Notes: generated by a model not told the origin, from the letters alone. Shown: positions 31,197-56,165, numbered from the stretch's first letter. The stretch is 64,000 nucleotides of DNA from Tagaea sp. (GCA_965228135.1 OZ245798.1:1469220-1533219), one strand, 5' to 3'. Numbers and translations: made by a program.

Positions 31197-31345
31197 CGAT
31201 GGTGGGCGAAGTCGGGCTCGAACCGACGACCTACTGATTAAGAGATGTCAAGCGGCATTGATATTCCTAGGGATTCCGCCGTCCAAACCTCACAGGCCCC
31301 CATTGACCGCCAAGGGAGATTCGCGAGACGACGGAAAGCGAACGG
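31197..31345. repeat. Repeat copy A (~150 nt; tRNA-3'-fragment plus adjacent arm)
   Basis: Aligns colinearly at ~70% identity, with a 10-nt indel in the T-arm, to 56040-56165. Shared blocks: cgaaccgacg, ctgat.aaga..tgtca, ttgat.ttcctaggg, ccaagg.agattc.cg...cgacggaaa. Confidence 0.55.
31200..31244 (-). other. tRNA 3'-terminal fragment (anticodon-loop region through CCA); no matching 5' half
   Basis: The minus-strand reading ...CTCTTAATCAGTAGGTC-GTCGG-TTCGAGC-CCGAC-TTCGCCC-A-CCA has a perfect T-arm, the acceptor 3' strand, a discriminator and CCA. The upstream sequence cannot form the acceptor 5' strand, the D-arm or the anticodon stem. Confidence 0.55.
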
Positions 31346-31463
31346 CCACGTTACGCGATGAACGTCTCTTGAAGATGGCGCCAAATGGGCGAACATCGGC
31401 ATTGGGTCACATGACCGCGTTGCTGCGCGCGAAGTTGCGCCGCCCGATGATGATTCGCAGCGC

Positions 31464-32474
31464 CTAAAGAACGTAAATTCCGCGCCGGAGTGCGACGGCA
31501 TTGCGCGCGGCCGTCGCGGCCGGCGGCAACGCCTCCGGCGCGCGGCGCGCATTTTCCGACAGATCGCGCATCGCCTCGGCCAGAAGATCCTGCATCCAAA
31601 GTATGCCGGAATCATTGCGCAGCTTCGCGTGCACATGCAGCGCGATATCGATCGAAGGAATCTCGAACGGAATTTCGAGCAAACTGAAATCGCCGTTCGC
31701 GTTGACGCGGCAGGCGATCGAATACGGAAACAGCGCCGCGAATTGGGAGCTGCGCACGAGTTCGGGGATCGTAGTAAAATTCTCGATCCGCGCTGAGCTA
31801 CGCCGCACGGCGCCGCATTGGTTGAGCCGGGCATCGACCATCTGAAACCCGGTCGCGCGGATGGTTACTTCGACGAAATTGAGTTGTGAAAATTCGGCGA
31901 TCGTCAGCTTGTGGCCCGCCATCGGATGGCCCGATTGAACGAGGCAAACGAAGCGATCTTTGAGCAGCAATCTGCTGGCGAATTCGGCATCGTCGAGATC
32001 GGGAAGAAATCCCATCGCGATATCGACCTGCCCATTGCGCAAGGCAGCGGCGATGCTCGTTGCCTCGAGTTGAACGGTGCGAACACGCACCGACGGCGCA
32101 ACATCCTGCAATCGCTGTAGGATCTGCGGCAGGCAGTAGAACTCCGACACATCCGACATGGCGATGTTGAACGTCCGGTTCGACGTCTCGGGCACGAAGA
32201 CGCCGTAATTGAGCAGCGTCGTGCTGGCGATGCGCATCGCCGTGCTGAACGGCTCGTAGAGTTCCTTGGCCGCCTCGGTCGGCTCCATCTTGTTGCCGAC
32301 ACGCAGAAAAAGCGGGTCCATGAAATGGTCGCGCAGCCGTTTCAGCGAATGGCTGACCGCCGGCTGAGTCAGGCCCAAGCGCGAACCGGCCCCCGAAATG
32401 CTGCGCTCGTCCCAAATGGCGACGAACACCTTCATCAGGTTCAGATCGAAGTGATTGATGTTGCTTCGATTCAT
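31464..32474 (-). CDS. LysR family transcriptional regulator
   Basis: HTH_1 (GLTQPAVSHSLKRLRDHF) plus a LysR substrate-binding domain. Start trimmed to MNRSNINHFDL. Confidence 0.8.
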   Translation of the reverse strand: MNRSNINHFDLNLMKVFVAIWDERSISGAGSRLGLTQPAVSHSLKRLRDHFMDPLFLRVGNKMEPTEAAKELYEPFSTAMRIASTTLLNYGVFVPETSNRTFNIAMSDVSEFYCLPQILQRLQDVAPSVRVRTVQLEATSIAAALRNGQVDIAMGFLPDLDDAEFASRLLLKDRFVCLVQSGHPMAGHKLTIAEFSQLNFVEVTIRATGFQMVDARLNQCGAVRRSSARIENFTTIPELVRSSQFAALFPYSIACRVNANGDFSLLEIPFEIPSIDIALHVHAKLRNDSGILWMQDLLAEAMRDLSENARRAPEALPPAATAARNAVALRRGIYVL

Positions 32475-32618
32475 ACGACCGCGCCCCCCGCTCGAAACCC
32501 TGTTATTGGGCGAACGGACGGCACCGGATCGGCGGCACCCGTTCAAGCGGACGCCCGGTACTTAACAATTACCGTGCCAACCCTTTGTCGCCCGTGCGAC
32601 GGGTGCGATTGTAGTCGA

Positions 32619-33908
32619 TTAGGTCCGCCCTGCAAAACGGCAAGCGATAGCGCACACCAGTTCGTCGCCGCCTTTCGGCCCGACGATCTGGAGCGAAACC
32701 GGACCGTCGGCGATCGGCATCAGGGGCATCGCCAGGGCCGGATGCCCGGAAAGATTGAACGGCCGAACGAGACGCGTGAGCGGCACGGCCGTGCGGTTTT
32801 CCCGCCCCTGTTCGAGTGTGGGCACGGGAACCGGCAAGGTCGGCAGCACCAGCGCATCGACCGAAGCGAAAAGCGCATCAAGCTCGTCCGAGAACGCTTT
32901 GCGCGCCGCCTCGGCCGTGTCGATCATCGCCGCCGTCACTTCGGCGCCGCCCTTCATCCGCTCGCCGACATCCGCGCCAACCAGACCCGACGCCAGCAAA
33001 TGACCTGCCGCCCGCCAGGTCTCGACATTGATCATCGTCAAACCGGCGGCGAAGGCGGAATCCATATGCGCGAATGTCGCCTCGATCGTCTCCAACCCCG
33101 ACGCGGCGATCGCCGAATTCACACGCGCTTCGATCTCGGGCGTCGCGACGCCCTTCAGCACTCCGATCCGGCCTTTGCCCGGCGTCACCGGCCCGAAACC
33201 GGGGCAGAGAATTTCCATCGCGCGCACGATATGCGCGAGATCGCGCGCGAACGGCCCCACGCAATCGAGCGTGGATTCGCGCGGCAGCACGCCGCGCCGC
33301 GACACGCGCCCGAAAGTCGGCTTCATCCCCCAGACGCCGCAACACGCCGCGGGGATGCGGATCGAACCGCCCGTATCCGTCCCGATGCCAATCTCCGCCG
33401 AACCTTCGGCGACGGCGGCGGCACTGCCGCTCGACGAGCCGCCGGGAACGCGGTCTGGAAAATTGGGATTGCGCGGCGTGCCCGCATAATCGTTGATCCC
33501 GGTGACGCCGAAAGCCAGCTCGTGCAGCACCGTCTTGCCGACGATGCGGCACCCCGCCTTCAGCAGAAGATCGACGACCGCCGCGTTCGCCGCCGCGGGC
33601 GGCGCATCGGCAAGCGCCCGGCTGCCCGCGCGCGTGGGATAGCCCGCGATATCGATCGTATCCTTCACCGCGACGCGAACGCCGCTCGCGGAACCCAACT
33701 CCAACCGTTCGACGAAAGCCGTCACTCGCGCGCCCCTTCCACGATCTCCGGTCCTTGTGCGGCGAGGAAGACCGCCTCGGCCAAGAACGCCGTTTCCATC
33801 AACCCCGCCGCCAGCGTCTTGGCGCCGTCCTTCGCCGCGACGCGCAGCATCGGCCGGCCGAAGGAATCGCGCCATTGCGACACGATCGTCACGTCGAGAT
33901 CGCGCCAC
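32619..33908 (-). CDS. Amidase signature (AS) family enzyme; N-terminus uncertain
   Basis: GGSSSGSAAAVA signature, Ser-cisSer-Lys region (GVRVAVKDTIDIAGYPT). The first ~58 codons after the ATG at 33908 are R/G-rich and unlike amidase N-termini. A GTG at 33725 overlaps the stop of a small upstream ORF (GTGA). Confidence 0.7.
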   Translation of the reverse strand: MARSRRDDRVAMARFLRPADAARRGEGRRQDAGGGVDGNGVLGRGGLPRRTRTGDRGRGARVTAFVERLELGSASGVRVAVKDTIDIAGYPTRAGSRALADAPPAAANAAVVDLLLKAGCRIVGKTVLHELAFGVTGINDYAGTPRNPNFPDRVPGGSSSGSAAAVAEGSAEIGIGTDTGGSIRIPAACCGVWGMKPTFGRVSRRGVLPRESTLDCVGPFARDLAHIVRAMEILCPGFGPVTPGKGRIGVLKGVATPEIEARVNSAIAASGLETIEATFAHMDSAFAAGLTMINVETWRAAGHLLASGLVGADVGERMKGGAEVTAAMIDTAEAARKAFSDELDALFASVDALVLPTLPVPVPTLEQGRENRTAVPLTRLVRPFNLSGHPALAMPLMPIADGPVSLQIVGPKGGDELVCAIACRFAGRT

Positions 33909-33943
33909 CGATAGACTTGGCCCATGACGGTCTTGTGGGCCAT
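33722..33943 (-). CDS. Possible small ORF (74 aa) or displaced amidase N-terminal frame
   Basis: MAHKTVMGQVYRW...GPEIVEGARE has non-repetitive composition. Its ATG shares a base with the SnoaL-like stop (TGATG) and its TGA overlaps the amidase GTG (GTGA). Confidence 0.25.
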   Translation of the reverse strand: MAHKTVMGQVYRWRDLDVTIVSQWRDSFGRPMLRVAAKDGAKTLAAGLMETAFLAEAVFLAAQGPEIVEGARE

Positions 33944-34500
33944 CAAGGCTTCATCAACACGGACGCCGACGGAAAATCGAACGCCCAACCCGCCGGCAGC
34001 GGCGCGACGAACACGTTCTCGGTGCGCGTGCGCGTGATCTTCCATTGCCCGTCCGGCTCCTTGCGGAACGTGTTGTTGAGACGCGAGGAGCGCAGCAGCG
34101 CCTTGCCGTCGGAGAAGATCCAAGGCTGCATATGCACCCACTGCCCGTCGGCCGTGTCGCCATGCACATGGATTTGCTCGGACGTCAGGTAGTGACAGTT
34201 CAACAACAAGGCCGGATCGCGCTTCTGGCCCCAGAACGCCTCGAAATGCTTGCGCAAAGCCGCTTTGCCGACGGCCCGGCCGAACTGGTTGTTATAGTAC
34301 TCGCCGACCCCTTCCCAGACCGCGTCTTCGGTATAGAGCGCGAGGATGAGTTCGACCCGCCGCGCGTCGTCGGTCACGCCGTATTCGGGATTGGGCGTGT
34401 CGCACAAGAACATATAGCGCGCCTGGATGCGGCGGATATCGGCTTCCGCTTCCAATATCTCGATGCGTTTGACGAGCGATTCGAGCGTGGGGGTCGTCAT
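33943..34500 (-). CDS. NTF2/SnoaL-like fold protein (ring-hydroxylating dioxygenase beta-subunit-like)
   Basis: SnoaL_4-like pattern. ~60% identical paralog at 54790..55353. Confidence 0.6.
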   Translation of the reverse strand: MTTPTLESLVKRIEILEAEADIRRIQARYMFLCDTPNPEYGVTDDARRVELILALYTEDAVWEGVGEYYNNQFGRAVGKAALRKHFEAFWGQKRDPALLLNCHYLTSEQIHVHGDTADGQWVHMQPWIFSDGKALLRSSRLNNTFRKEPDGQWKITRTRTENVFVAPLPAGWAFDFPSASVLMKP

Positions 34501-34517
34501 AGTCGTTGGGCTCCTGT

Positions 34518-35027
34518 TCAGGCGCTGCGCGCGTGCAGCGTGTGGAAGTCGCGGTCGAAATAGATGAGGCCGCGCCGCGATTCGCCGGTCGATATCGCAA
34601 GCACTTGCGCGAAGATCACGCTATGCGTGCCGACCTCGCGCAGATCGGCGACGCGGCAATCGAACGCGACCGTGGCGCTTTCCAGAATCGGCGCGCCGGT
34701 CGCGAGCTTGCGCCAAACGGCGCCCGCGAACCGTTCCTCGGGCGCTATTCCCGGCTTGCCGAAACGCATCGCCAGCGCTTCGTGATCGCCGCCTAGAACG
34801 CTCACCGACAACACGCCGTTCGCAAGAATCACGTCGTGGACGCTGGAACTGCGGTTGACGCAAACGAGCAGCGTGGGCGGCGTGTCGGTGACGCTGCAAA
34901 CGGCGGAAGCGGTGATGCCGTGCGTCCCCGACGGCCCGTCGGTCGCGACGATGTTGACGGCCGCCCCCAGGCGCGACATCGCCTGACGGAAGTCGCGCGT
35001 ATCGACCGGGTTTGGCGGCATCGTCAT
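34518..35027 (-). CDS. Flavin reductase (HpaC-like, FMN-binding split barrel)
   Basis: Flavin_Reduct domain (FRQAMSRLGAAVNIVAT...GITASAVCSVTDTPP). Confidence 0.8.
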   Translation of the reverse strand: MTMPPNPVDTRDFRQAMSRLGAAVNIVATDGPSGTHGITASAVCSVTDTPPTLLVCVNRSSSVHDVILANGVLSVSVLGGDHEALAMRFGKPGIAPEERFAGAVWRKLATGAPILESATVAFDCRVADLREVGTHSVIFAQVLAISTGESRRGLIYFDRDFHTLHARSA

Positions 35028-35028
35028 C

Positions 35029-35976
35029 CTAGAGATCGAGGACGAGATTGGCGGATTTGGCGCGCGAGCAGCACAGGACGATCTGATCGTTCGCCGCCTT
35101 CTCGTCGTCGGTCAGGAAGGAGTCGCGATGCTCGGGCTCGCCTTCCAGCACGTTGCACAAGCATGTGCCGCAAATGCCCTGCTCGCACGACACCGTCACC
35201 TTCACGCCGATCTTGGCGAGTGCCGCGACGATCGTCTCGTCCGCGCCCACCGTCACGCGGCGGCCGGATCGTGACAGCGTCACGTCGAACGGCGCGCCGC
35301 CGGCGGCTTCGGCGGGCGTGAAGAACTCCTGATGGAACGACGAATCCGGCAGCCCGGCGCCCGTCGCCGCGTCGCGCACCCACGCCATGAAGCCGTTGGG
35401 GCCGCAGACATACACATGCGCGCCGGGCGCCAAGGCGGCGAAGCTTCGGGCCGGATCGAAGCGCTGCTCGGCCGCTTCGTCGTCGAAATGCAGATGGACG
35501 CCGGCCGCGAACGGGACCGCCGCCAATTCGTCGAGGAAAGCGGCGCGCGCGCGCGACCGCGCGCAGTAATGCAGCTCGAAGGCCTGGCCCGCCGCGTGAA
35601 GCGCATGCGCCATCGCGATCATCGGTGTGACGCCGATTCCGCCGCCCACGAGAATGCTGTACGACGCCTTGGGATCGAGGGGGAACAGATTGCGCGGCGC
35701 GCCGATCCGCGTACGCGTGCCGGCCGCGAAAGTCGCGTGCAAAGCCGCCGAGCCGCCGCGCGAGTTGGGATCGCGCAACACGCCGATCCGGTAATCGCCG
35801 CCGCGCGCGGGATCGCCGCAGAGCGAATACTGGCGCACGAGGCCCGGCGCCACTTCCACGTCGATATGCGCGCCGGCCGCGAACGGCGGCAGCTTGGCCC
35901 CGTTCGCAGCGGCAAGTTCCAGGACGACGACGTCGCCGCCCTGGCGTTCGCATTTGGTGACGATCGCCTCGATCAT
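35029..35976 (-). CDS. Phthalate-dioxygenase-reductase-type oxidoreductase (FNR-like FAD/NAD domain plus C-terminal plant-type 2Fe-2S ferredoxin)
   Basis: RQYSL flavin motif, GGIGVTP NAD motif, C-terminal CEQGICGTC...C cluster. Confidence 0.8.
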   Translation of the reverse strand: MIEAIVTKCERQGGDVVVLELAAANGAKLPPFAAGAHIDVEVAPGLVRQYSLCGDPARGGDYRIGVLRDPNSRGGSAALHATFAAGTRTRIGAPRNLFPLDPKASYSILVGGGIGVTPMIAMAHALHAAGQAFELHYCARSRARAAFLDELAAVPFAAGVHLHFDDEAAEQRFDPARSFAALAPGAHVYVCGPNGFMAWVRDAATGAGLPDSSFHQEFFTPAEAAGGAPFDVTLSRSGRRVTVGADETIVAALAKIGVKVTVSCEQGICGTCLCNVLEGEPEHRDSFLTDDEKAANDQIVLCCSRAKSANLVLDL

Positions 35977-35980
35977 CGCG

Positions 35981-36475
35981 TCACAGGATATAGCTGATGC
36001 CGCCGAGCATGCCGTCGGAATTGATCAGACGGATGACCTTGCGCTCGATCTTCAGACCGTCCGGCGTGCGGCGCAGCAGATACTCGAGATTCGCCGTGTA
36101 GCAGCGTTCACGCTCGCGGCGATACTCGGTCAGGCGCTGCATCGCGCGCAGCGAAATGATCGTGCCGTCGTCGGTCAGGATGCGGAAGCGCGAGACCGAA
36201 CGGATCGTGCGCGGAAACGGCGACGCGGCGATCGACGCGCCGCTCATCAGACGCTGCACACGCTTGGCGCGCATCGATTTGTCGTCGTAGGCGTAATTGA
36301 GACCCTTTTCGAAATCGACCACCCCGGGCTCGATCGGCACGATATAGCGCGCGTCGTCGGTCCACATCGTCAGCCATTCGTCGAACTCGCCGTGGTCGAG
36401 GCGATCGGCCTCGAGCCACACGAATTCCATCACCTCGGTCAGCGCGGCGGTCCGCGAAAGCGTTTCGACCGTCAT
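35981..36475 (-). CDS. Aromatic-ring-hydroxylating dioxygenase beta (small) subunit
   Basis: Ring_hydroxyl_B fold; 4-nt gap to the alpha-subunit gene. Confidence 0.8.
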   Translation of the reverse strand: MTVETLSRTAALTEVMEFVWLEADRLDHGEFDEWLTMWTDDARYIVPIEPGVVDFEKGLNYAYDDKSMRAKRVQRLMSGASIAASPFPRTIRSVSRFRILTDDGTIISLRAMQRLTEYRRERERCYTANLEYLLRRTPDGLKIERKVIRLINSDGMLGGISYIL

Positions 36476-36478
36476 CTC

Positions 36479-37753
36479 TCAGACCTCCATCATCTTTTTC
36501 CATTGCCCGTAGGCGGCGCGCATGCCCGCCTCGGAACTCGCATCATCGCTGCGCCGCCCGTCGGGCGTGGCGTATTCGTCGTCGAGCGAGCGATTGACCA
36601 TCAGCCAGGTCAGCGCCGCCGGGCCCTTCGCGCCGCGCTGCACGCGTTCCCACACTTCCGCGTCGTCGGGACTGCCGAAACCCATTGCACCCTGGAAGAA
36701 CTCGTGGATGCGCCGACGCATGCGGTTGGCGGCTTCCGGCCCGCCCGCCATTCCCAGCGCCACGTGGCGGACTTCCGTCTGGCCGACCGAGATCGGCCGC
36801 AGGACGCGAAAGAACGCGGCCGAACAGCCGAGATTGGGGAAAAGGTTCAGATTGAAACCGGCCCCGCCGACCGCGCGCACGATGCGGCGAATCTTCAGAT
36901 CGTCGTGACCTTCGGCGCGCAGCTCGGCCGCCAACGCGGCGAATTTCTCGGGGATCGGCGCCTCGAGATTTTCCTCCAGATCGACGAGCTCGGGCATCAT
37001 GATCATGACGCTATGCCCGTTGCCGAGATCCTCGACCCAGCCGCCCTTGTTCAGGATGTCGAACAGCTTCTCGGTCTCGGGATCGGTCACCTCCAGGAAG
37101 GCGCGATGCACGAACGGGAAGTGATAGGCGTCCGTCGTGTTCTCGAGCTGGATCTTCCAGTTGCCGTCGAAAATGAAGCGATGCTCGCCCTGCGTCGACA
37201 TCGGGTAGCCGGCGCTCTGCTTCATGAACAGGTCGATCCATTTCTTCGCCGGCCCAAGGAAGGAGTCGAGCGATTGGATCGTGTCGTCGAGCGTCGCGAA
37301 GATCAGGCCGTTGTATTCCTCGACGCGCAACGATTTGAGCCCGAGTTCGCCCTTCTCGAGCTTGCCGGCGTAGCTCGTCTCGTACGGCACGCCGCGCAGC
37401 GCGCCGTCGAGCGAATAGGCCCAGCCGTGATACGGGCAGACGAAGCTATTGGTCTTTCCCGAATGCACTTCGCACACCGTGGCGCCGCGATGGCGGCAGC
37501 GGTTGAGCAGGACATGGACCTTGTTCTTCCGATCGCGCGTGACGATCACCGATTCGAGACCGACATGCGCGCGCTTGAAGTCGCCGGCATTCGGGATTTC
37601 CGACGCGTGGGCGACCCAAACCCAAGTCTTGCCGAAGACCTTCTTCATCTCCTCGTCGAAAAGCGCGGGGTCGGTATAGAGCGTGCTGAGCACGCGATCC
37701 GACTTGACCAGTTCCGAGATCCGCGACGGCGCGGTCTTTTCGAGCGTGTCCAT
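36479..37753 (-). CDS. Rieske non-heme iron oxygenase alpha subunit
   Basis: Rieske CRHRG...CPYHGW motif and catalytic domain. True start MDTLEKT at 37753 with an AGGAG SD; the listed ORF is over-extended. Confidence 0.85.
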   Translation of the reverse strand: MDTLEKTAPSRISELVKSDRVLSTLYTDPALFDEEMKKVFGKTWVWVAHASEIPNAGDFKRAHVGLESVIVTRDRKNKVHVLLNRCRHRGATVCEVHSGKTNSFVCPYHGWAYSLDGALRGVPYETSYAGKLEKGELGLKSLRVEEYNGLIFATLDDTIQSLDSFLGPAKKWIDLFMKQSAGYPMSTQGEHRFIFDGNWKIQLENTTDAYHFPFVHRAFLEVTDPETEKLFDILNKGGWVEDLGNGHSVMIMMPELVDLEENLEAPIPEKFAALAAELRAEGHDDLKIRRIVRAVGGAGFNLNLFPNLGCSAAFFRVLRPISVGQTEVRHVALGMAGGPEAANRMRRRIHEFFQGAMGFGSPDDAEVWERVQRGAKGPAALTWLMVNRSLDDEYATPDGRRSDDASSEAGMRAAYGQWKKMMEV

Positions 37754-37763
37754 GACGAACTCC

Positions 37764-38573
37764 TTAGAGATAACGGCTGAGAAGCTTGGCGGTGGCGTAG
37801 CGCAGCGCGCGATCGAACAGATAGCCGAGGATGCCGAGGCAGATGATCCCGACGAACACCCAGTCGGTCCGGCCGAAATTGCGCGCCATCCAGATCGTCG
37901 CCCCAAGCCCGGTTTGCGCCGCGACGATTTCCGCCGAAACGACGGTCAGGAACGAATTGCCCATCGCGATGCGCGCACCCGTGACCATGTAGGGAACCGA
38001 AGACGGCACGATCACCGTCAGCATTTCCGCAATCGCGCCCGCCCCCAAGCTGCGTGCGGCGCGCAAGCGCAACGGACTGACCGCCGTCACGCCCGCGATC
38101 GTGTTCAGCGTGACGATGAAGATCGTCGTGTAGAAGATCAGCGCGACTTTCGAGATTTCCCCCGGCCCCAGCCAAATCACCGCCAGCGTGACGAAGGCGA
38201 TCGGCGGGATGAAGCGGAAGAACTCGATATAGGGGTCCATCACCAAACGGACGATCGCGAAGCGGCCCATGAACAGGCCGAGCGGCACGCCGCACGCGAC
38301 CCCCAAAATCCATCCGGCGGCGATGCGGGCACCCGACGCGGCGATCGATTCGAAGAGCGAACCGTCCTGCGCCATCTCCACCATCGTCCACCACACCGTG
38401 ATCGGCGACGGCAGGAACAACGGCGAGGTGTAGATCGAGGCGATCTGCCAGAGGACGATGCCCGCAAGGACGCCGGCACCGCCGATGGCGGTTTTCTTGG
38501 CGGCGGCGGAAATCTGGGCTTTCATGCCGTCGGCGCGCGGTGCCGCGATCTGGACCGGGTTGGAAACGCTCAT
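37764..38573 (-). CDS. ABC transporter permease (nitrate/sulfonate/bicarbonate, SsuC/TauC-type)
   Basis: BPD_transp_1 domain. Start trimmed to MSVSNPVQ (ATGA overlap with the upstream ATPase gene). Confidence 0.75.
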   Translation of the reverse strand: MSVSNPVQIAAPRADGMKAQISAAAKKTAIGGAGVLAGIVLWQIASIYTSPLFLPSPITVWWTMVEMAQDGSLFESIAASGARIAAGWILGVACGVPLGLFMGRFAIVRLVMDPYIEFFRFIPPIAFVTLAVIWLGPGEISKVALIFYTTIFIVTLNTIAGVTAVSPLRLRAARSLGAGAIAEMLTVIVPSSVPYMVTGARIAMGNSFLTVVSAEIVAAQTGLGATIWMARNFGRTDWVFVGIICLGILGYLFDRALRYATAKLLSRYL

Positions 38574-39367
38574 GCGGCTTCTCCCGGCATTTCGATCTGG
38601 CGCAGCGCGCGTTTGACTTCGGCGCCGATGTCGTCGCGCAAGCGGCGGAACAGCGCGAGGCATTCCGCGCTGCCTTGATCGCGCGGATGCGGCAGGTTGA
38701 TGGTTTCGATCGTCTTGATCGAAGCGCGCGGCCCCGCGGTCATCACGACGACGCGGTCGGCGAGCAAAAGCGCCTCCCAGATGTCGTGCGTGACGAACAC
38801 GATCGTGCAGCCGGTCTCGCGCCAGATGCGGTCGAGCTCGCCTTGCAGAACCTCGCGCGTCTGCGCGTCGAGCGCGCCGAACGGCTCGTCCATCAGCAGG
38901 ATCGACGGCTCGTTGATCAGCACGCGCGCGATCTGCGCGCGCTGCATCATGCCGCCCGAAACCTGCGCCGGGAACAGATCGCCGGCATGGCCGAGCCCGA
39001 CCATCGCGAGATAGCGATCGGCCTTGGCGCGGCGCTCGGCCGCCGGAACGCCGCGCAGGCGCAAGCCGTACTCGACGTTCTGGCGGATCGTGAGCCAGGG
39101 GAAGAGCGCCTCCGAGGATTGGAACACGACGCCGCGTTCCAAACCCGGCGCGGTCACTTTCGCGCCATTCGCCTCCAGCGTGCCGGAAACCTCGACGAAC
39201 CCGGCGATCGCGTTGAGTACCGTCGACTTGCCGCAGCCCGAGGGGCCGAGCAGGCAGACGAACTCGCCGGGTTTGATCTCGAGATTGAGATTGGCGACGA
39301 TCTGCGACGTGCCGAGCGTGATGCCGACATGCCGCAGCGCGATGGAAGCGCCCTTCGCCATGGCCAT
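38570..39367 (-). CDS. ABC transporter ATP-binding protein (SsuB/TauB-type)
   Basis: Walker A GPSGCGKST, signature VSGGMMQR, Walker B LLMDEPF. True start MAMAKG at 39367. Confidence 0.8.
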   Translation of the reverse strand: MAMAKGASIALRHVGITLGTSQIVANLNLEIKPGEFVCLLGPSGCGKSTVLNAIAGFVEVSGTLEANGAKVTAPGLERGVVFQSSEALFPWLTIRQNVEYGLRLRGVPAAERRAKADRYLAMVGLGHAGDLFPAQVSGGMMQRAQIARVLINEPSILLMDEPFGALDAQTREVLQGELDRIWRETGCTIVFVTHDIWEALLLADRVVVMTAGPRASIKTIETINLPHPRDQGSAECLALFRRLRDDIGAEVKRALRQIEMPGEAA

Positions 39368-40314: not shown

Positions 40315-40362
40315 TGGGGGCCTCTCCTGCTTTGGGACGTTGGGGTTTCGGGGGACGGGGGA

Positions 40363-43219: not shown

Positions 43220-43220
43220 G

Positions 43221-44599: not shown

Positions 44600-44642
44600 A
44601 TCGTCTCGTTAGGCGAAACGCGGCGATCGGCGCAGACACGAG

Positions 44643-44659: not shown

Positions 44660-44727
44660 GATTCGGCGGGAGGCGGAGCCCCGCCTCCGCTAGGCTCGGG
44701 TCGCTTCGGCCAAGAGCGATTGCCGCC

Positions 44728-46679: not shown

Positions 46680-46688
46680 GGGACGAAA

Positions 46689-46976: not shown

Positions 46977-46995
46977 GGCCGTAAGGAAGAATCGA

Positions 46996-47880: not shown

Positions 47881-47901
47881 ACGACGCCGCGCCGCCGCCG
47901 C

Positions 47902-48204: not shown

Positions 48205-48315
48205 CGGCGTTCTCCCTTTTCGGCCGTGGTTCGCGCCAGATTGCCGATCCGGCGCCGGATGGCGGCGGCGAAAAATGTCCAATTTGGACATGCGCCGGGT
48301 TAGACTGGGCGCGCG

Positions 48316-50001
48316 ATGAACGACTACGAAATCAAACGCGTCATCGATCTGATCGGACGGATGCGGGCCCCCTATCTCACGCGCCTGCCCTTCGCCGAGC
48401 CCGACCACAATTGGAACATCGTCAGCCAGCTGATCCAATCGACTTTGGCCGGCGATCCGGTGACCATCACCGCGCTGATCCAAGCGTCGGGGGCGAGCTA
48501 CGGCACGGCCTCGCGCGCCGTGCATCGCCTGATCGACGCGGGCCATATCGTCGAAGTGACGCGCCCCAAACGGCGGGGCGTGACGCTGCGGCCCAGCGCG
48601 GATCTGTTGAAGCGCTTCAGCGACTACGCGACCGACGTGAAGATGGAGCTCGCGCGCATTCTGGGCCAAGACGGGTTCGTGCACGAGGACGAGTATTTTT
48701 TCGGCGGCGAGCATCAGCGCCAGGCGCTCCAGGAGCGCCACATCATCCATCTGAAGGCGATCGCTGACGTGGAGAAGCTCCGCTTCCTGCTTCACCACGA
48801 CTATTTCTTTCTGTCGATCAAGCATCTGTGGAGCGACTTTCGCCGCCCGATCGGGCCCGCGACGCATTTCGACACGGCCGAGCGCACGCAGCTTTACGCG
48901 CGCATCGTCGAGAACGGCAAGGCACGGGTTTCGGCCTACGACGTCGTATCGGTCAGCGCCACGGCATTGGCCGATCTCGCCGCGCGCGGCTTGCTGCTGC
49001 CGCTTGATGACTTGATCGGCCGCGACAAGATCGAGCCCGGTCGCTTCGACGCGCAAGTCTGGCGCGGCGGCGAATGGTCGGGCCGGCAATGGGCCGTGCC
49101 CGCCTATTCCAGCGTGGAATTGCTCGCGGCGCGGCGCGATCTTTTGGCGGATAAGGGCTTACCCATGCCCGATCGATTCGACGCGGTCGTCGCCGCCGCG
49201 CGCCGTTTGCACGATCCCGCGCGCGACATCTACGGCATCGCCTGGGCCGGGGCGCGCGGCATGCCGATCGCGCGCAGTTTCATATCGCTGATGGCCCATT
49301 GCGGCACGCCGATCTTCGATGCCGGCGGCGGCCGGGGCGGTGTACCGCCGGAGATTTTCGATCGCGATCGCGTCGCCGCCGCACTCGACACCGCCGCCGC
49401 GCAGCAAGCGTTGGGCTTCCTGCGCCGCTTGCTGCCATATTCCACGCGCGACGCGCTGACTGCCGCCCCCGGCGATGTGCTGCAGAACTTCATGCATGGC
49501 CGCGCGGCCTTCGCCTATCTGCAATCGGTGGAGGCGACGCGCCTCGAAATCGATATCCGCTCCGTCGTGAAACGCAAAGTCGCCTATCTGCCGCCGCCCA
49601 CGCGGCGGGGTGCCCCGATGCCCTTGCCGCTCGACGGGTTCCTGTTCGCCATTCCGGCGAATATCGACCGCGAGCGGATCGATGCCGCGCGGCGGTTGAT
49701 GGTGTGGATATCCTCCCCCGCCGCGGTCGATGCCCGCGCGCGCGAAGGCCTGCCGATCTCGCCCTTGTTCAGCCTGCAAGGCGATCCGGAATCGCGCCGC
49801 TTGTCGCCGATCTATGCCTCGATCCAGCGTCTTGCGCGGCGCGACTTGCTGCGCATGAGCCGCCGTCCGCCGCATCCCGCCAGCCGCCAAGCCCAAACCA
49901 TCTTGGGCGAAGCGATCCACGACGCATTATCCGGCGCCAAAAGCGATTCCGCCGCTTTCGCCGATGCGAAAGCCAGGATCGGCGCGTTGCCCGTCCGCTG
50001 A
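48316..50001 (+). CDS. Transcriptional regulator: N-terminal wHTH fused to a type-2 periplasmic-binding-protein-like (SBP_bac_1-like) domain, no signal peptide
   Basis: N-terminal ~100 aa form a winged helix (ITALIQASGASYGTASRAVHRLIDAGHIVEV). The remaining ~450 aa resemble sugar-ABC solute-binding proteins. Divergent from a sugar ABC/GMC operon. Confidence 0.6.
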   Translation: MNDYEIKRVIDLIGRMRAPYLTRLPFAEPDHNWNIVSQLIQSTLAGDPVTITALIQASGASYGTASRAVHRLIDAGHIVEVTRPKRRGVTLRPSADLLKRFSDYATDVKMELARILGQDGFVHEDEYFFGGEHQRQALQERHIIHLKAIADVEKLRFLLHHDYFFLSIKHLWSDFRRPIGPATHFDTAERTQLYARIVENGKARVSAYDVVSVSATALADLAARGLLLPLDDLIGRDKIEPGRFDAQVWRGGEWSGRQWAVPAYSSVELLAARRDLLADKGLPMPDRFDAVVAAARRLHDPARDIYGIAWAGARGMPIARSFISLMAHCGTPIFDAGGGRGGVPPEIFDRDRVAAALDTAAAQQALGFLRRLLPYSTRDALTAAPGDVLQNFMHGRAAFAYLQSVEATRLEIDIRSVVKRKVAYLPPPTRRGAPMPLPLDGFLFAIPANIDRERIDAARRLMVWISSPAAVDARAREGLPISPLFSLQGDPESRRLSPIYASIQRLARRDLLRMSRRPPHPASRQAQTILGEAIHDALSGAKSDSAAFADAKARIGALPVR

Positions 50002-50007
50002 TCGCCG

Positions 50008-51621
50008 TCAGCGCGTGTCGGCAAGGATCATATCGGCGGCCTTCTCGCCGATCGCCACGCAAGTCGCGTTCGTATTGCCATCCGGGATCATGGGCATGAT
50101 CGAGCCGTCGGCGATGCGCAACCCGTCGATCCCCTTCAGGCGCAAGCGCGCATCGACCGGATCGGCCGCGTCCGGCCCCATCCGGCACGACCCGACCGCG
50201 TGATGATTGGCGCGGCCGAAGCGGCGCGCATAGTCGAGCAATTCGCCATCGTCGCCGAAATCCGGCCCCGGCCGTTCCTCGCCCGCGAAGTAGCGCGCGA
50301 GTGCCGGCGCCGCCGAGATGAGCCGCGCGAGCTTCAATCCCTCGACGATCGCCGTACGATCGCGGTCGCTCGACAGGAAATCGATCTCGATACGCGGCAG
50401 ATCGGCCGGGTCGGGCGAGCGTAGCGAAATCGTGCCGCGCGCTTCGGGCGCTAGATCGACAACCGTCAATCGGAACGCCGAGAACGGATCGAGCAACGGC
50501 GCATCCTTGACCGTGCCGTCACGTTGCGTCGACCACAGGCCGAGATTGATCTGCAGGTCGCGCAACGGCCCGCCGGCGCGGTTCAACAGCGCGCCGCCGA
50601 AGACGCCGGTGGCCGCCATCGGGCCTTTACGCACGAGGATGTATTGCAGCCCCATCGCCAAACGTCCCCACCACGTCGCGAAGCGGTCGTTGAGCGTCAC
50701 CGGCTCGCGGCAGCGATTGACGACCCCGACATCGAAATGATCGCGATAGCCGCGCCCCACGCCGGGCAGATCGCGGATCGGCGATATCCCCTGCGCCGTG
50801 AGCATTGCGGCGGGTCCAAGCCCTGAATGCATCAGAAGATGCGGCGTATTGAAACTCCCCGCACTCAGCACGACCATGCGCCGCGCGCGCAAATGCCGGA
50901 TCTGCCCCTCTTCGCGCACGACGATGCCGGCGGCGCGGCCTTCCTCGATCGCCACGCGCTCGACGCGCGCCTGAAGCCGCAGATCAAGCGTCTTCGGGCG
51001 TGGACGAAGATATGCCGCCGGGGTGCTGCGCCGCCCGGCGGCGGCGGCGAACTGGAAATAGCCCGCCCCTTGCGCGACCGCGCCATTGAAATCGCCGGTC
51101 GGCGGAATGCCGGTCTCGGCCGCCGCCGCGACGAACGCGTCGACCAATTCGTGGCGCGGACCGTCGGCGACACGGATCGGCCCGTCGCCGCCGTGATACG
51201 GATCGGCGCCCCGCGCATTCGCCTCCGACTTGCGGAAATAGGGCAGCAGATCCGCATAGCTCCAGCCCGGATTTCCCGACGCCGCCCAGCGATCGTAGAG
51301 CGCCGGGGAGCCGCGCATATAGGTCATGCCGTTGATCGCGCCCGTACCGCCGAGCACGCGCCCGCGCGGCTGGTGAAGCCAGCGCCCCTTGAGCGCATTC
51401 GATGGCTCGATGCGATGGCCCCAGATCAGCGCCGGGTTCTCAAACAGCTTGCCGTAACCGAGCGGCACGTGGATCCACGGATTGCGATCCGCACCGCCCG
51501 CCTCGACCAATGCGACGCGCCACCCCGCCTGCGCCAGCCGTGCGGCGACGGCGCAGCCCGACGAGCCCGCGCCCACGACGATCGCGTCGTAGCTTGCGTC
51601 CCACACGATCCCCGGCGGCAT
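50008..51621 (-). CDS. GMC family oxidoreductase (choline/alcohol dehydrogenase-like)
   Basis: GxGxxG FAD motif (VVGAGSSGCAVAARLA), GMC N- and C-terminal domains. Start MPPGIVWD at 51621; the listed ORF 50008..52545 is a fusion artefact. Confidence 0.8.
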   Translation of the reverse strand: MPPGIVWDASYDAIVVGAGSSGCAVAARLAQAGWRVALVEAGGADRNPWIHVPLGYGKLFENPALIWGHRIEPSNALKGRWLHQPRGRVLGGTGAINGMTYMRGSPALYDRWAASGNPGWSYADLLPYFRKSEANARGADPYHGGDGPIRVADGPRHELVDAFVAAAAETGIPPTGDFNGAVAQGAGYFQFAAAAGRRSTPAAYLRPRPKTLDLRLQARVERVAIEEGRAAGIVVREEGQIRHLRARRMVVLSAGSFNTPHLLMHSGLGPAAMLTAQGISPIRDLPGVGRGYRDHFDVGVVNRCREPVTLNDRFATWWGRLAMGLQYILVRKGPMAATGVFGGALLNRAGGPLRDLQINLGLWSTQRDGTVKDAPLLDPFSAFRLTVVDLAPEARGTISLRSPDPADLPRIEIDFLSSDRDRTAIVEGLKLARLISAAPALARYFAGEERPGPDFGDDGELLDYARRFGRANHHAVGSCRMGPDAADPVDARLRLKGIDGLRIADGSIMPMIPDGNTNATCVAIGEKAADMILADTR

Positions 51622-51632
51622 GGCGCGCCCGT

Positions 51633-52469
51633 TCAGCCCTTGACCGCGCCCGATCCGAGACCGGCGACGAAGTAGCGCTGCACGCACAAGAACAGGATCA
51701 CCGGCGGAATGGTGAACAGCATCGCCGCCGCCATGATTTCGTTCCACGGCGTCACGTATTCGCCCATCATCGACGACAGGCCGATCGTCGCGACCCAATT
51801 GTCGGCGCTGCGCAACAAAGTGCGCGCCAGCATGTATTCGTCCCACGCGTTGAGGAACGCGAAGATAACGCAAGCGACGATGCCGGGCAGCGACAGCGGC
51901 ACGATCAGCCGCGACAGGATATAGAGCCACGAGGCGCCGTCGACGCGCGCGGCCTCGTCGATCTCGAACGGCACCGTGTCGAAGATCGACTTCATCATCC
52001 ACACCGTGACCGGCAGTGCGAACGCCGTGTTGGCGACGATCACGCTGAACAGCGTGTCGGCCAGGCCGAAACCAATGAACGCCGAATAGAGCGGAATGAT
52101 CAGCACGATCGGCGGCATCATCTGCGTCGCCAGGATCGTCAGATTCAAACCGCCGCGCCCGCGGAAGGGAAAGCGCGACAGCGCATAGGCGGCCGGCATG
52201 CCGATCAGCAGCGCCACGATCGCCGACACGCCCGAGACCACCAGCGAATTCGCCATCCAGCGCAGCAATTGGGTTTCGCGCAGGACTTTCGCGATGACCT
52301 CGACGCCCGACGTATCGGGCAGGAAGGCCGGCGGGAAATGCGTTAGTTGTTCGGGCGATTCCAGCGCCGTCTTCGCCATCCACAAAAAGGGAAACGCGAA
52401 GATCAAACCGACCGCGAGACTGCCGAGGCCGATCGCGGTCTTGCGCAAGGGCGAGGCTTCGATACTCAC
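51633..52469 (-). CDS. Carbohydrate ABC transporter permease (MalG-type), GTG start
   Basis: BPD_transp_1 domain. GTG at 52469 overlaps the MalF-type stop (GTGA); no in-frame ATG is available there. Confidence 0.75.
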   Translation of the reverse strand: MSIEASPLRKTAIGLGSLAVGLIFAFPFLWMAKTALESPEQLTHFPPAFLPDTSGVEVIAKVLRETQLLRWMANSLVVSGVSAIVALLIGMPAAYALSRFPFRGRGGLNLTILATQMMPPIVLIIPLYSAFIGFGLADTLFSVIVANTAFALPVTVWMMKSIFDTVPFEIDEAARVDGASWLYILSRLIVPLSLPGIVACVIFAFLNAWDEYMLARTLLRSADNWVATIGLSSMMGEYVTPWNEIMAAAMLFTIPPVILFLCVQRYFVAGLGSGAVKG

Positions 52470-53437
52470 CGGCGCGCCTCCATCGAGCGCACGAACCACA
52501 GATACGCGGCGGCGCAAACGAAGGAGATAACGAGAACGCCCACACCCAGCGCCGAGGCCGTGCCGGGGCGGAAACCTTGAAACATCTCGGTATAGGAGCG
52601 TAGCACGATCGTCTCGCTGCAACCGGCGGGGCCGCCGCCCGTCAGCAGATAGATCGCGGTGAACGATCGCCCGAAGCACCAGATCATCATCAGCAGCGTC
52701 AGCGTGATCGAGGTCGAGCGGATGCCCGGCAGCGTCACATAGCGGAAGCACTGCCAAGAACTGGCGCCGTCGACGCGCGCCGCCTCGTAATGGCTTTCGG
52801 GGATGGTTTGCAAAGCCGACAGCATCATGACGGTTCCCAGCGGGAACAGCTTCCAGATCGAAATGCCGGTCAGCGTGACCAGCGCGTCGGGGCACGCGGT
52901 CAGGAATTCCGCCTCCAGCAAGCCGCCCGAAAGGGTCCGCAGCATGTAATTGAGGATTCCGGTATCGAAGCCGAGCATCCAGGCGAAGATCAGGCTCGCC
53001 GCAACATAGGGCATCGCCCAGGGGATGATGAACAAGGCGCGCACGATACTGCGCCCGCGGAAGCTTTCGTTGAGCAGTAGCGCGGTCCCCAGGCCGATCG
53101 CCCAAACGGCGGCAACATTGCCCACGGTGTAGATGACCGACGTCGTCAGCAGCCGCGGCAGCGTCGGATCGGCGAAGATGCGCGCGTAGTTCGACAGGCC
53201 CACGAAGGTGGGGCTGCGGCCCATCGCGTCGGACATCACGCTCATCTGGAATGTGCGCAGCGTGGGATAGAGATAGACGAGCGCCAGCGCGATCAGGCAC
53301 GGCGCCAAAAAGAACGCGGCCGGAAGGCCGGTGCCAAGGCCGCGCCAGAAGGGCGGTTTCGGTGCGCGAGAGGGGGTGCCGCTTACGGCACCCCCCTTGG
53401 CCGCGCCGCCGGGGGAAGCGGGCGCGATCGCGTTCAT
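52466..53437 (-). CDS. Carbohydrate ABC transporter permease (MalF-type)
   Basis: BPD_transp_1 domain. Start overlaps the SBP stop. Confidence 0.75.
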   Translation of the reverse strand: MNAIAPASPGGAAKGGAVSGTPSRAPKPPFWRGLGTGLPAAFFLAPCLIALALVYLYPTLRTFQMSVMSDAMGRSPTFVGLSNYARIFADPTLPRLLTTSVIYTVGNVAAVWAIGLGTALLLNESFRGRSIVRALFIIPWAMPYVAASLIFAWMLGFDTGILNYMLRTLSGGLLEAEFLTACPDALVTLTGISIWKLFPLGTVMMLSALQTIPESHYEAARVDGASSWQCFRYVTLPGIRSTSITLTLLMMIWCFGRSFTAIYLLTGGGPAGCSETIVLRSYTEMFQGFRPGTASALGVGVLVISFVCAAAYLWFVRSMEARR

Positions 53438-54726
53438 TTCTTCGCTTTGTCGGCGATGAACTTCACGAGATCGGCCTGCATCGCGTCCGCCGTGGCCTGC
53501 GGCGCCTGCCCGCGGAACAGCAGCGCTTCCACATGGCCGCCGACGATCTTGATGATGTCGCTGCCGTATTGCTCGACGCCTTCCGGCGCATACGAGACCG
53601 CGACGGCGGCGAGGTCGCTGACCGTCTTGAACCAGGGATTTTCGGCCAGAAAGCTCGACGGAATCATGTTCTTGCGCGCCGGGATCGCCTTGATCAATTC
53701 GACCGCGCGCTGCTGATACTTCTCTTGCAGGATCGAAACGATCAGCTTCGCGGCCAGATCCTTCTGCTTAGCACCCTTCGGCACGCCCAGGAAGTTCGTG
53801 ACCGTGACCGGCGCGCCGGGACCGAACGGCAGCGGCGCCGTGATCAGGTTGGCATAGGTGTCCTTGTTGCCCGCCGCCGTGACGCCGCCCATGAACGGGC
53901 CGGCGACATAGCTCGCCACCTTCGCGTTGACGAACATCGGCCGGTAGACCTCGAAACGCACGCCCTTCGGGATCAGGTTCTGATCGAAGATGCGCTTGTA
54001 GAAGGTCAGCGCCGCGACCATTGCGGGCGAGTTCGCCGTCGGCTTGCCGGCGGTGAAGACCTTGGCGCCGAAGCTCGCCAACATCGGCGAGTATTCCAGG
54101 AATTGCTGATCGGGCGACCCCGACGACGCAGCGGTCGCGTAGCCGAATTGCTGCTTGGCCGGGTCGCGCAGCTTGGTCAGCATCTGCGAGAACGCGTCGA
54201 GATTGGCGGGCACGGACAACCCGGCACCGTCCAGCATCGCCTTGTTGAGGAACAGCACACGCGGATTGGTGACGAACACGATGCCGTAGATCTTGCCGTC
54301 CTTCATGGCGAGATTGGCCGGCCCGATGAATTCCTCGAGCTTGATCCCCGCCGCCGCGATGTAGGAATCGAGCGGCTCCAACAGACCGGCGTCGACATAT
54401 CGCTTGAAGTCGGGATCGAGCGCCGTCAGCACGTCGGGCGGATTGCCGGACGTGATGTCGATATACATCTGGTCGTTGAAGGCGCCGAAGGGAATGAAGC
54501 TGTCCTTCACCTTCGCGTCGGGGTTCGCCTTCTCGAAGTCGGCCTTCAACTCCTTCAGGAAGGCGCCATAGGTCGGCTCCGTCCAGTGGTAGCTCGGATA
54601 GTTGATATCGGCCGCGATCGCGCCGCCCATGCCGATGCCGGCGACGAGCGCCGACGTCAGCAAGGCGGTGCGCAGAAACCGGCCGGCGGCCGCTTTACGC
54701 GCGTTGTTCCAGATCGGTGAAAGCAT
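53434..54726 (-). CDS. Sugar ABC transporter substrate-binding protein (SBP family 1)
   Basis: Signal peptide plus an SBP_bac_1 domain. Confidence 0.8.
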   Translation of the reverse strand: MLSPIWNNARKAAAGRFLRTALLTSALVAGIGMGGAIAADINYPSYHWTEPTYGAFLKELKADFEKANPDAKVKDSFIPFGAFNDQMYIDITSGNPPDVLTALDPDFKRYVDAGLLEPLDSYIAAAGIKLEEFIGPANLAMKDGKIYGIVFVTNPRVLFLNKAMLDGAGLSVPANLDAFSQMLTKLRDPAKQQFGYATAASSGSPDQQFLEYSPMLASFGAKVFTAGKPTANSPAMVAALTFYKRIFDQNLIPKGVRFEVYRPMFVNAKVASYVAGPFMGGVTAAGNKDTYANLITAPLPFGPGAPVTVTNFLGVPKGAKQKDLAAKLIVSILQEKYQQRAVELIKAIPARKNMIPSSFLAENPWFKTVSDLAAVAVSYAPEGVEQYGSDIIKIVGGHVEALLFRGQAPQATADAMQADLVKFIADKAKK

Positions 54727-54789
54727 GTCCTGTTCCTTTTGAATGAAGGCGGCCTCTTGCCGGGCGCCGTCGGGATCGCAAGTCTCGCG

Positions 54790-55353
54790 TTACTCCTGCA
54801 TCAGGATCGAATCCTTGGGGATGTTCTCGGCCCAGCCATTGGGCAGCGGCGCCACGAAGACGTTCTCCGTGCGATAGCGCGACATCTTCCACACGCCATC
54901 GACCTTGCGGAATTTGTTGTTGAGGCGGCTGGAGCGCAGCACCGAGCTGCCGTCGCTGAAGATCCAGGGCTGGAAATGCACCCACTGTCCCGTCGCCTCG
55001 TCGCCGCGCACATGGATTTGCTCGGAAGTGAGATAGTGGCAGTTGAGCAGCATCGCGGGTTCGCGCGGCTCGAAGAAGCCGGAGAAATGCTTGAGGAGCC
55101 CCGCACGGCCCACGCTGCGGCCGAACTGGTTCGTGTAATACGGGCCGACACCTTCCCAGATCGCGTCGTCGGTATAGAGCGACAGGATCGCGTCGATGCG
55201 CTCCTTGACGCCTTGGCTGCCCGGTTCGGGCATCGGCACGTCGCACAGGAACATATAACGCGCGACGATCCGGCGGATGTCGCCTTCGGCGGAAAGATCG
55301 GCGACCTGCTTTTGGAGCGCGACGATCGCGGCGGCCATTTCTTGGGTGTTCAT
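54790..55353 (-). CDS. NTF2/SnoaL-like fold protein (paralog of 33943..34500)
   Basis: ~60% identical to the first copy (shared ARYMFLCD, LLNCHYLTSEQIHV, TENVFVAPLP). Confidence 0.6.
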   Translation of the reverse strand: MNTQEMAAAIVALQKQVADLSAEGDIRRIVARYMFLCDVPMPEPGSQGVKERIDAILSLYTDDAIWEGVGPYYTNQFGRSVGRAGLLKHFSGFFEPREPAMLLNCHYLTSEQIHVRGDEATGQWVHFQPWIFSDGSSVLRSSRLNNKFRKVDGVWKMSRYRTENVFVAPLPNGWAENIPKDSILMQE

Positions 55354-55388
55354 CGGACGACCTCGGGTAATACTGGTGGAAGCCGCGA

Positions 55389-55682
55389 TCAAACGGCGTC
55401 GACGAAAGTGATCTTCACGTCTTCGGCCAGGAAGCCGTCCTTCAGGCGCAGAAACTCCTGAAAGGCGGGTGTGGCGCCATGTGCTTCGAGTGCGGCCTGA
55501 TCGCGCCAACGCTCGTAGAACACGATCGTCGCGGCGTCGCCCGCGTCGCGATAAACCTTGTATTCGATGCAGCCCGCCTCGGCCCGCGACGACTTCGCGA
55601 GCCCGGCGACGAGATCAAGGAACCCTTGCGTCGACGCGGGCTTGGTGCGCGCGAAGGCGATCAGCGTTTTCTCTGACGACAT
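55389..55682 (-). CDS. ABM domain monooxygenase-like protein (paralog of 47902..48204)
   Basis: 97-aa ABM fold. The listed ORF 55389..56825 is over-extended. Confidence 0.65.
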   Translation of the reverse strand: MSSEKTLIAFARTKPASTQGFLDLVAGLAKSSRAEAGCIEYKVYRDAGDAATIVFYERWRDQAALEAHGATPAFQEFLRLKDGFLAEDVKITFVDAV

Positions 55683-56039
55683 TTGTATGCGATCTCCCCG
55701 ATCGAAGTTGCGTTTCGACGATATCAAAACGCTTTCGGCGCGCTGATCGAAGATATCCAGAATGGATGTTTCGTCCGATCGAGCGCCAGGCGACGCAAGC
55801 AACAACGTCAAGTTCGGTTTCCGGCCACAACGACGGGCGCAGCGATCCGGCTTCGACGAAGCAAAGCCCGAAGAGCGCGAGCCGGGCCCTAACGGGATCG
55901 CCGGAATGATTCGGGCGAACGCGGTATGTCGCCCGCGCGATCGACGAGATATCCGCGGCGGGCCAAGCCGCTCGAACGACCACAAAGGAAAAAGCCCCGG
56001 TTGGTAACCAGGACCTTTTGTTCGTCGGGGCAGATAGTG

Positions 56040-56165
56040 TGCGATGCTGGGCGCGAACCGACGGCAAGCTGATGAAGATCTGTCAGATAACGTTGATTTT
56101 CCTAGGGTTTTCCGTCGCACGAGCCCCATCGAACCCCAAGGAAGATTCACGGCGCGACGGAAAAT
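56040..56165. repeat. Repeat copy B (degenerate homolog of 31197-31345, same orientation)
   Basis: Retains gatg.tgggcg|cgaaccgacg, ctgatgaaga, ttgattttcctaggg and ccaaggaagattc...cgacggaaa. The T-arm segment is deleted. Confidence 0.5.

Follow-up and report, generated by a model that had tools for sequence, protein, structure and literature searches.

A 64,000-nt window of the Tagaea sp. genome (GCA_965228135.1, OZ245798.1:1469220-1533219), by which we mean the whole stretch of DNA that was analysed, carries two direct repeats, one on either side of a block of catabolic genes. Comparing the window with itself by blastn, as a first-pass annotation had proposed, returned two copies and no other: the stretches 31148-31337 and 55984-56163 form a 190-nt alignment with 71% identity (E = 2.3e-19). 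An nhmmer search with a profile of three copies (these two, called units A and B, and a third from another organism, copy C, described below) also found no third unit in the window. Degenerate patterns derived from the repeat match A and B alone, with 0 matches expected from shuffles. In a repeat search of the window the copies are colinear and in direct orientation at a spacing of 24,835 bp, so the two same-orientation copies at roughly 70% identity first described are borne out. From nhmmer, and from blastn against each other and, for unit A, against copy C, unit A occupies 31146-31338 and the decayed unit B 55981-56165, both on the minus strand. At ~190 nt, the repeat is longer than the ~150 nt initially given; it reaches ~50 nt further left in both copies, and the part that had been missed comprises a spacer and a minus-strand intrinsic terminator.

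Between the units lies a 24.6-kb segment (31339-55980) whose gene content was assigned by Pfam scans. It encodes a Rieske oxygenase and its reductase, a flavin reductase, an intradiol dioxygenase, ABM proteins and a maleylacetate-reductase-like Fe-alcohol-dehydrogenase (Fe-ADH). Further genes encode an amidase, two SnoaL-like proteins, an acyl-CoA dehydrogenase-like protein, a nitroreductase, a CoA transferase, a YCII protein and a GMC oxidoreductase; regulation and transport are represented by LysR and ABC transporters. Given this content, the earlier label of an aromatic-catabolic cluster is a fair one. Only catabolic, transport and regulatory genes were found by Pfam between 31.3 and 56.0 kb, with no genes for integration or transfer. 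One ABM-family monooxygenase gene of 97 aa (55389-55682, minus strand) is easily missed under a spurious overlapping open reading frame (ORF) of 478 aa. The ~300 nt directly left of unit B (55683-55980) are non-coding; an integrase would be expected there if an inner element were intact. Neither beside B nor across the whole window were integrase remnants seen, and no transposase, conjugation or phage gene turned up in the 64 kb.

Read on the minus strand, each unit consists of an arm of ~90 nt, the 3′ half of a tRNA-Lys(CUU) gene, and a spacer followed by an intrinsic terminator. The tRNA half of unit A (31200-31244, minus strand) begins with the first anticodon-loop base and ends with CCA; its assignment rests on the sequence itself, a partial alignment to the Rfam tRNA model and homology to the tRNA-Lys(CUU) gene of Shinella. 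From 31244 down to 31200 the minus strand reads CTCTTAATCAGTAGGTCGTCGGTTCGAGCCCGACTTCGCCCACCA, which comprises the anticodon loop with CUU, the 3′ strand of the anticodon stem, the variable loop, the T-arm, the 3′ strand of the acceptor stem and CCA (in parts, CTCTTAATCAG TAGGTC GTCGG TTCGAGC CCGAC TTCGCCC A CCA). The T-arm, GTCGG/TTCGAGC/CCGAC, is intact. In Shinella and Sphingomonas, the intact tRNA-Lys(CUU) genes correspond to this half and differ from A mainly at paired stem positions. With the Rfam tRNA model the score is 14.4 bits, below the gathering score of 29, and the convincing part of the alignment is limited to the 3′ half. Across the window ARAGORN calls no tRNA, and no tRNA, tmRNA or known small RNA family reaches its Rfam gathering score. 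The tRNA-derived segment noticed in the first-pass annotation is thus identified, from the sequence and the Shinella alignment, as a tRNA-Lys(CUU) 3′ half. In A, B and C alike, the 5′ boundary of the fragment is the first base of the anticodon loop.

The corresponding half of unit B (56035-56079, minus strand) is decayed. It differs from A at 12 of 45 positions and from C also at 12 of 45, without gaps; it has lost CCA and carries substitutions at the conserved T-loop A58 and at two of the seven bases in the anticodon loop. A loss of 10 nt from the T-arm of B, as had been claimed, is therefore wrong. The 10-nt indel sits in the arm instead, where it equals one unit of a tandem repeat. The ideas of a two-piece transfer-messenger RNA (tmRNA) and of a tRNA-like small RNA were rejected, given the tRNA-Lys anticodon loop, negative ARAGORN and Rfam results, and the lack of a promoter and of excess folding energy.

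The arm begins with an inverted repeat, TTTTCCGTCG ... CGACGGAAAA, of 10 nt with one mismatch in A (by inspection of the sequence), of 11 bp without mismatch in B and of 13 nt at 92% in C. It encloses tandem 10-nt repeats of the form GGGGTTCNAT, present in 2.8 copies in C (Tandem Repeats Finder), in two in B and in three degenerate copies in A. These are followed by a conserved CCCTAGGAA(A/T)ATCAA block and then by TTGACA, which adjoins the tRNA core; positions invariant in all three copies include CCCTAGGAANATCAAN(7)TGACA. In unit A the arm spans 31245-31338 (minus strand) and contains the inverted repeat (31274-31283 with 31327-31336), the three 10-nt repeats (~31284-31313), a CCTAGG palindrome (31266-31271) and the ATATCAA...TTGACA block adjoining the core. 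The arm of unit B (56080-56165, minus strand) has the perfect inverted repeat (56108-56118 with 56154-56164) and the two 10-nt repeats, one fewer than in A and C. An inverted repeat together with two or three tandem 10-nt repeats would be typical of the arms of attachment (att) sites, and we regard the arm repeats as putative protein-binding sites.

On the other side of the tRNA half, a spacer of 10-12 nt leads to the terminator. In A this occupies 31150-31189 (minus strand), with stem arms at 31156-31166 and 31172-31182 and then a T-run; in B it occupies 55989-56019 (minus strand) and is a 14-pair hairpin, again followed by a T-run. All five substitutions in the stem of B relative to A keep the pairing when the minus strand is read. 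No convincing hairpin with a 10-nt loop was found at the position of the anticodon arm, where one had been reported; the hairpins that are conserved are the arm inverted repeat and the terminator.

Copy C came from a metagenome-wide scan with a pattern confined to the arm. The scan gave six loci, of which five are chance matches and one is a true relative (L008), on contig VFQU01000889.1 of the metagenome-assembled genome GCA_006364995.1. By blastn, its identity with A is 81.7% across 186 nt and that with B 74.5% across 192 nt. Divided by part, the arm is 73% identical between A and B, 80% between A and C and 83% between B and C. The tRNA half gives 73%, 91% and 73% for the same pairs, and the spacer with the terminator 71%, 79% and 77%. 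The T-arms of A and C are both perfect, and their T-stems differ by a compensatory change (GTCGG/CCGAC vs GTAGG/CCTAC).

Homology among the three copies breaks off sharply at either end of the unit, and identity in the flanks is 27-50% for all pairs. These borders bear on whether the repeat pair could have arisen, with no site-specific recombination involved, when a segment of intergenic DNA was duplicated, perhaps along with the SnoaL-like paralogues. The two SnoaL-like genes of the segment (33943-34500 and 54790-55353, minus strand) are ~79% identical in DNA, a divergence similar to that between A and B. The order, however, is A followed by SnoaL on the left but SnoaL followed by B on the right, which is not one colinear block, so the SnoaL pair is a separate duplication. 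Within 3 kb around each unit there is no homology beyond the unit and the SnoaL gene, and C lies in another organism in unrelated context. With these borders and this gene order, duplication is an extremely unlikely origin of the repeat pair.

A JGI contig from the lineage of copy C (L034) shows where the unit can be divided. From the first anticodon-loop base (CTCTTAATCAG) rightwards it is near-identical to the contig of copy C, through the tRNA half, the spacer, the terminator and a neighbouring L-idonate-dehydrogenase-like gene. Left of the anticodon loop the two are unrelated, and L034 lacks the arm; in its place are ~13 further tRNA-like bases, then a terminator, then the 3′ end of a tmRNA gene. 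Since the match ends at the anticodon loop, in this lineage the arm is the inserted, variable side, and the tRNA half with its terminator is the constant, chromosomal side. To judge from the two sequences, a breakpoint at this position is characteristic of an attR-type junction that arose by site-specific recombination. In several other contigs, too, the terminator of C stays with the constant side and the arm is not kept with it. Three independent sequencing runs gave Logan contigs that all stop 22 nt inside the tRNA half of C. Such contig ends are expected if the sequence recurs in those genomes, for example in a rebuilt tRNA gene, and they lend weak support to a repeated tRNA half; strain variation within a metagenome can also break contigs.

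The dehydrogenase locus of this lineage has further features. The same dehydrogenase gene also adjoins tmRNA-derived sequence, the tmRNA 3′ end at 8170-8226 of L034 matching Rfam RF00023 (E = 5.8e-5) and being cut by the contig end. In two further contigs (L014 and L015, 343-aa-ADH relatives), a degenerate tRNA-like element at ~11165-11262 has the same acceptor end (CGCTCCGACCA). The locus looks like an integration hot spot with multiple scars.

We searched for the arm and for the whole unit outside the window. The arm has no match in 7.3 Gb of plasmids, in phage records or in IMG/VR, and plasmid and phage BLAST searches with A or C gave matches confined to the 45-nt tRNA part. Four scans of viral contigs produced zero matches or chance matches alone. 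The chromosome of S. meliloti likewise matches the tRNA part of the unit and no more of it. Two scans of reference genomes found nothing: one used a pattern requiring the T-stem of A and B, which is too strict and would miss C, and the other the exact 41-nt tRNA half of A, which is too strict to gauge how rare the family is.

These searches are relevant to the suggestion that the ~190-nt unit is a dispersed, non-autonomous repeat derived from a tRNA-Lys gene, resembling a miniature inverted-repeat transposable element (MITE) or a repetitive extragenic palindrome (REP), of which two copies flank the cluster by chance. Sharp boundaries at both ends of all three copies, different genes on both sides of each, and assembly contigs that break at the unit are what such a repeat would give. 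Against it, the 64 kb contain two copies, searches of the plasmid, phage and IMG/VR sets did not find the arm, and the metagenome-wide scan found one true relative. Inspection of the sequence at the unit ends revealed neither terminal inverted repeats nor target-site duplications. Furthermore, L034 shares the tRNA half and terminator alone, and its break exactly at the anticodon loop points to site-specific recombination instead of the insertion of a whole unit. We therefore consider a dispersed repeat very unlikely.

The conserved hairpins raise another possibility, that the unit is a family of minus-strand small RNA genes, each with a structured hairpin at the 5′ end, a tRNA-like domain at the 3′ end and a terminator of its own. 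All copies retain the terminator, and the five stem substitutions of B preserve pairing on the minus strand alone, where the mismatches of the arm inverted repeat become G-U pairs. Across three helices 96.6% of cells are paired, and four pairs are changed on both sides. Shuffle controls, however, equalled the observed covariation values in 21-72 of 500 trials with three sequences. Folding is no better than that of shuffled sequence (z = -0.45 and -1.2), no promoter-like site is present and nothing is conserved upstream of the unit. The unit matches no Rfam family, the tRNA-like part of B has neither CCA nor T-loop A58, and the breakpoint in L034 favours recombination. A small RNA family is accordingly a highly improbable explanation of the unit.

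The DNA on either side of the repeat pair was also characterised. To the left of A, tblastx and the gene table delimit a block (22545-31126) colinear with Mesorhizobium sp. GCA_020165765, with colinearity ending at 31117-31126, ~20-30 nt before the unit. This 8.6-kb block encodes an RraA-like protein, a short-chain dehydrogenase/reductase (SDR), a Zn-ADH, two MR_MLE enzymes, an amino-acid ABC transporter and GntR. Its main tblastx segments are 66-90% identical to Mesorhizobium (the MR_MLE enzymes 85-87%), and the best relative of the neighbouring LysR is at 62%; the block may itself have been horizontally transferred. We considered the Mesorhizobium contig as an ancestral empty site and rejected it, as it continues into unrelated transporters and has no tRNA. 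To the right of B (56166-64000), Pfam identified RpiR, ABC transporter components and an M24 peptidase, and no mobility genes were seen up to the end of the window. To judge from orientation only, this stretch may be part of a second, tRNA-proximal element. It ends in an AT-rich intergenic stretch (63686-64000) with A runs and a TAGCTCAGT-like motif, in which ARAGORN calls no tRNA.

At the opposite end of the window there are two patches of low GC content (1-2000 and 5000-10000), at 0.50-0.58 compared with ~0.64 elsewhere. One gene here (124-1419) encodes an SMC/AAA_21-type ATPase that partly resembles the defence ATPase Ppl; several other ORFs, 110-411 aa in length, have no Pfam match and at most weak PADLOC or PHROG matches. 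The patches may be a separate acquired region.

Taken together, we think it likely that A and B are att-site junction scars of integrative elements with a tyrosine integrase that acts within the anticodon loop of a tRNA-Lys(CUU) gene. The first-pass annotation had also read the units as att-type junctions of elements that target a tRNA gene. That reading is supported by the start of all copies at the anticodon loop, by the same start base in the phage BiPBO1 (below), by the break between copy C and L034, by the sharp borders of the units, by the arm features and by the loss of colinearity with Mesorhizobium ~20-30 nt before unit A. The attP site of such an element would carry the arm and a copy of the tRNA-Lys 3′ half, probably together with a homologous terminator. 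Strand exchange by the integrase would take place at the anticodon loop of the tRNA-Lys gene on the chromosome, and this gene would be rebuilt at one end with the 3′ half brought by the element. At the other end, the displaced host 3′ half and its terminator would become joined to the arm of the element. As the tRNA sense lies on the minus strand, element DNA should be to the right of each unit and the intact tRNA-Lys gene beyond 64 kb; any surviving integrase would be expected at higher coordinates as well. The earlier proposal of island DNA to the right of A agrees with this orientation.

Two units in direct orientation imply two accreted elements, and we infer tandem accretion at one tRNA-Lys gene. 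Unit A, with its tRNA half still perfect, would be the outer junction, and B the inner junction between the two elements, older and mutated. The plain model first suggested, in which A and B are attR ends of two related elements, does not predict the similarity on the terminator side. B is indeed decayed, as was also suggested for the older of two successive junctions, but simple accretion in situ predicts that the outer junction, A, is the older, yet A is pristine. The contrast between a pristine A and a decayed B favours arrival as a composite, with B as an internal scar; most likely, then, the two-part array arrived as one unit that already contained B. Lacking an integrase, the segment between A and B fits the definition of a cis-mobilizable element (CIME), and it is probably a CIME-like accreted island that is now immobile. 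Because B differs at two of the seven bases of the anticodon loop, the presumed overlap for strand exchange, the two units can probably no longer recombine to excise the segment.

Several observations weigh against this interpretation. Pfam detects no integrase or other recombinase domain in any sizeable ORF from 1 to 64 kb, and the window contains neither an intact tRNA-Lys gene (ARAGORN) nor a tRNA 5′ half. Composition shows no clear break at A or B: GC content goes from ~0.61 to 0.65-0.67 right of A, and GC at third codon positions (GC3) is similar throughout. The genes on the arm side differ in all three copies (LysR at A, RpiR at B, and the end of a racemase-like gene followed by a short ORF at C), leaving no shared element backbone. 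L034 is not a clean empty site, its own tRNA-Lys being truncated too, ~13 nt further 5′. Among the three copies, conservation of the spacer and terminator equals that of the arm, although the terminator is chromosomal in C, and this requires either related host tRNA-Lys loci or an attP with a homologous terminator. The arm and terminator of B look better kept than its tRNA half. Finally, three copies of the unit are known, which makes the covariation statistics weak. The terminator conservation and the well-kept arm and terminator of B leave room for some retained role of the unit.

Equal divergence of arm and terminator (80% and 79% between A and C), as though the two were co-evolving, would also be explained if all copies were unsplit attP-like or hybrid sites. 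Both flanks of A, including 22.5-31.1 kb, would then be island DNA, with the chromosomal junction further left. Transfer of the left block would fit its 75-90% protein identity to the Mesorhizobium contig, the LysR on the right having no relative above 62%. The whole window, moreover, consists of accessory operons, with the low-GC patches at 1-2 kb and 5-10 kb. For C, however, this is contradicted by L034 and several other contigs, in which the terminator stays with the chromosomal side and the arm does not, and left of A the window shows neither another unit nor another piece of a tRNA. We consider unsplit sites unlikely. A related idea is that the unit is not a passive scar but a self-contained module under selection, either a portable site on which a tRNA-Lys integrase or directionality factor encoded elsewhere in the genome could still act in trans, or a transcribed tRNA-like RNA. 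Hints of this are the perfect arm inverted repeat of B, its pairing-compatible terminator changes, and the equal divergence of arm and terminator across hosts. A selected module is a doubtful proposition on these hints; if true, a portable site recognised in trans would let catabolic gene blocks be captured or shuffled.

If A and B are indeed junction scars at tRNA-Lys, the DNA from 31.3 to 56.0 kb, and probably onward past 64 kb, is marked as horizontally acquired. A history also follows for the hydroxyquinol/catechol-type cluster, which would have entered by site-specific recombination at tRNA-Lys and subsequently lost its mobility genes. The unit would in addition define the arm of a family of tRNA-Lys-targeting elements that was not found in the plasmid, phage and virus collections searched; this arm can be used as a search probe.

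Among known systems, the cis-mobilizable elements and tandem arrays, reviewed with citation of the original ICESt1-related elements of Streptococcus thermophilus (PMC5704250), provide a close parallel to the arrangement. As in these, direct att-type repeats bracket cargo without integration and transfer genes and, as in tandem accretion, an inner hybrid junction separates two elements. Transfer of the composite as one unit is an acknowledged possibility for accreted elements (PMC5704250). The Tagaea segment differs from CIMEs and tandem arrays in that no functional partner element or integrase is seen in the window and B is mutated in the presumed overlap, so that cis-mobilization has probably been lost; it differs from the ICESt1-related elements in its alphaproteobacterial host and catabolic cargo.

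The site itself resembles that of the temperate Brucella phage BiPBO1 (KT724718), which in the phage BLAST search matched the 45-nt tRNA half at 93% identity. Integration of BiPBO1 at a lysine tRNA gene, with a 46-bp common core, was mapped experimentally (PMC4729917). As in the attP of BiPBO1, the core of the unit is the 3′ ~45 nt of tRNA-Lys(CUU) with the same start base (CTCTTAATCAG...CCACCA), and an A/T-rich ...ATCAA... block lies 13-14 nt upstream of it. The host order, Hyphomicrobiales, is also shared. In BiPBO1 the tRNA-Lys half lies ~75 nt downstream of the integrase gene, which is preceded by the excisionase gene; these two genes are directly upstream of the BiPBO1 arm, whereas unrelated genes take that place here, and tblastn of the BiPBO1 integrase and excisionase against the window gave no match. 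Nor do the arms show homology detectable by blastn, and the terminator of the unit lacks a counterpart by homology in BiPBO1.

A second parallel is offered by the phiLM21-like prophages and other phage-related sequences of Sinorhizobium meliloti, which have the same target gene and bacterial order (PMC12429752, PMC11476347). Their tyrosine integrases reconstruct the tRNA gene on integration (PMC12429752, PMC11476347), and tRNA-Lys(CUU) is the commonest integration site of the phiLM21-like prophages in S. meliloti (PMC12429752). The prophages are 50-55 kb long and carry phage genes, in contrast to the locus described here. An orphan tRNA-Lys(CUU) 3′ half, with neither a 5′ half nor a tRNA call, is also present on plasmid p195_1 of Bradyrhizobium sp. 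195 (L033, ~6009-6054). It is preceded by GGCTTGAA, which the GCTTGACA of the unit resembles at that position; apart from this motif, neither the arm nor the sequence downstream is related to that of the unit, and there is no homologue of the terminator, no CCTAGG and no 10-nt repeats. This is a conjugative plasmid of the symbiosis type, and several Bradyrhizobium plasmids carry two or three such places. The mechanism of targeting tRNA-Lys is itself ordinary and of textbook kind and, with BiPBO1, the phiLM21-like prophages and the half on the Bradyrhizobium plasmid as examples, this kind of site is well known in the bacterial order.

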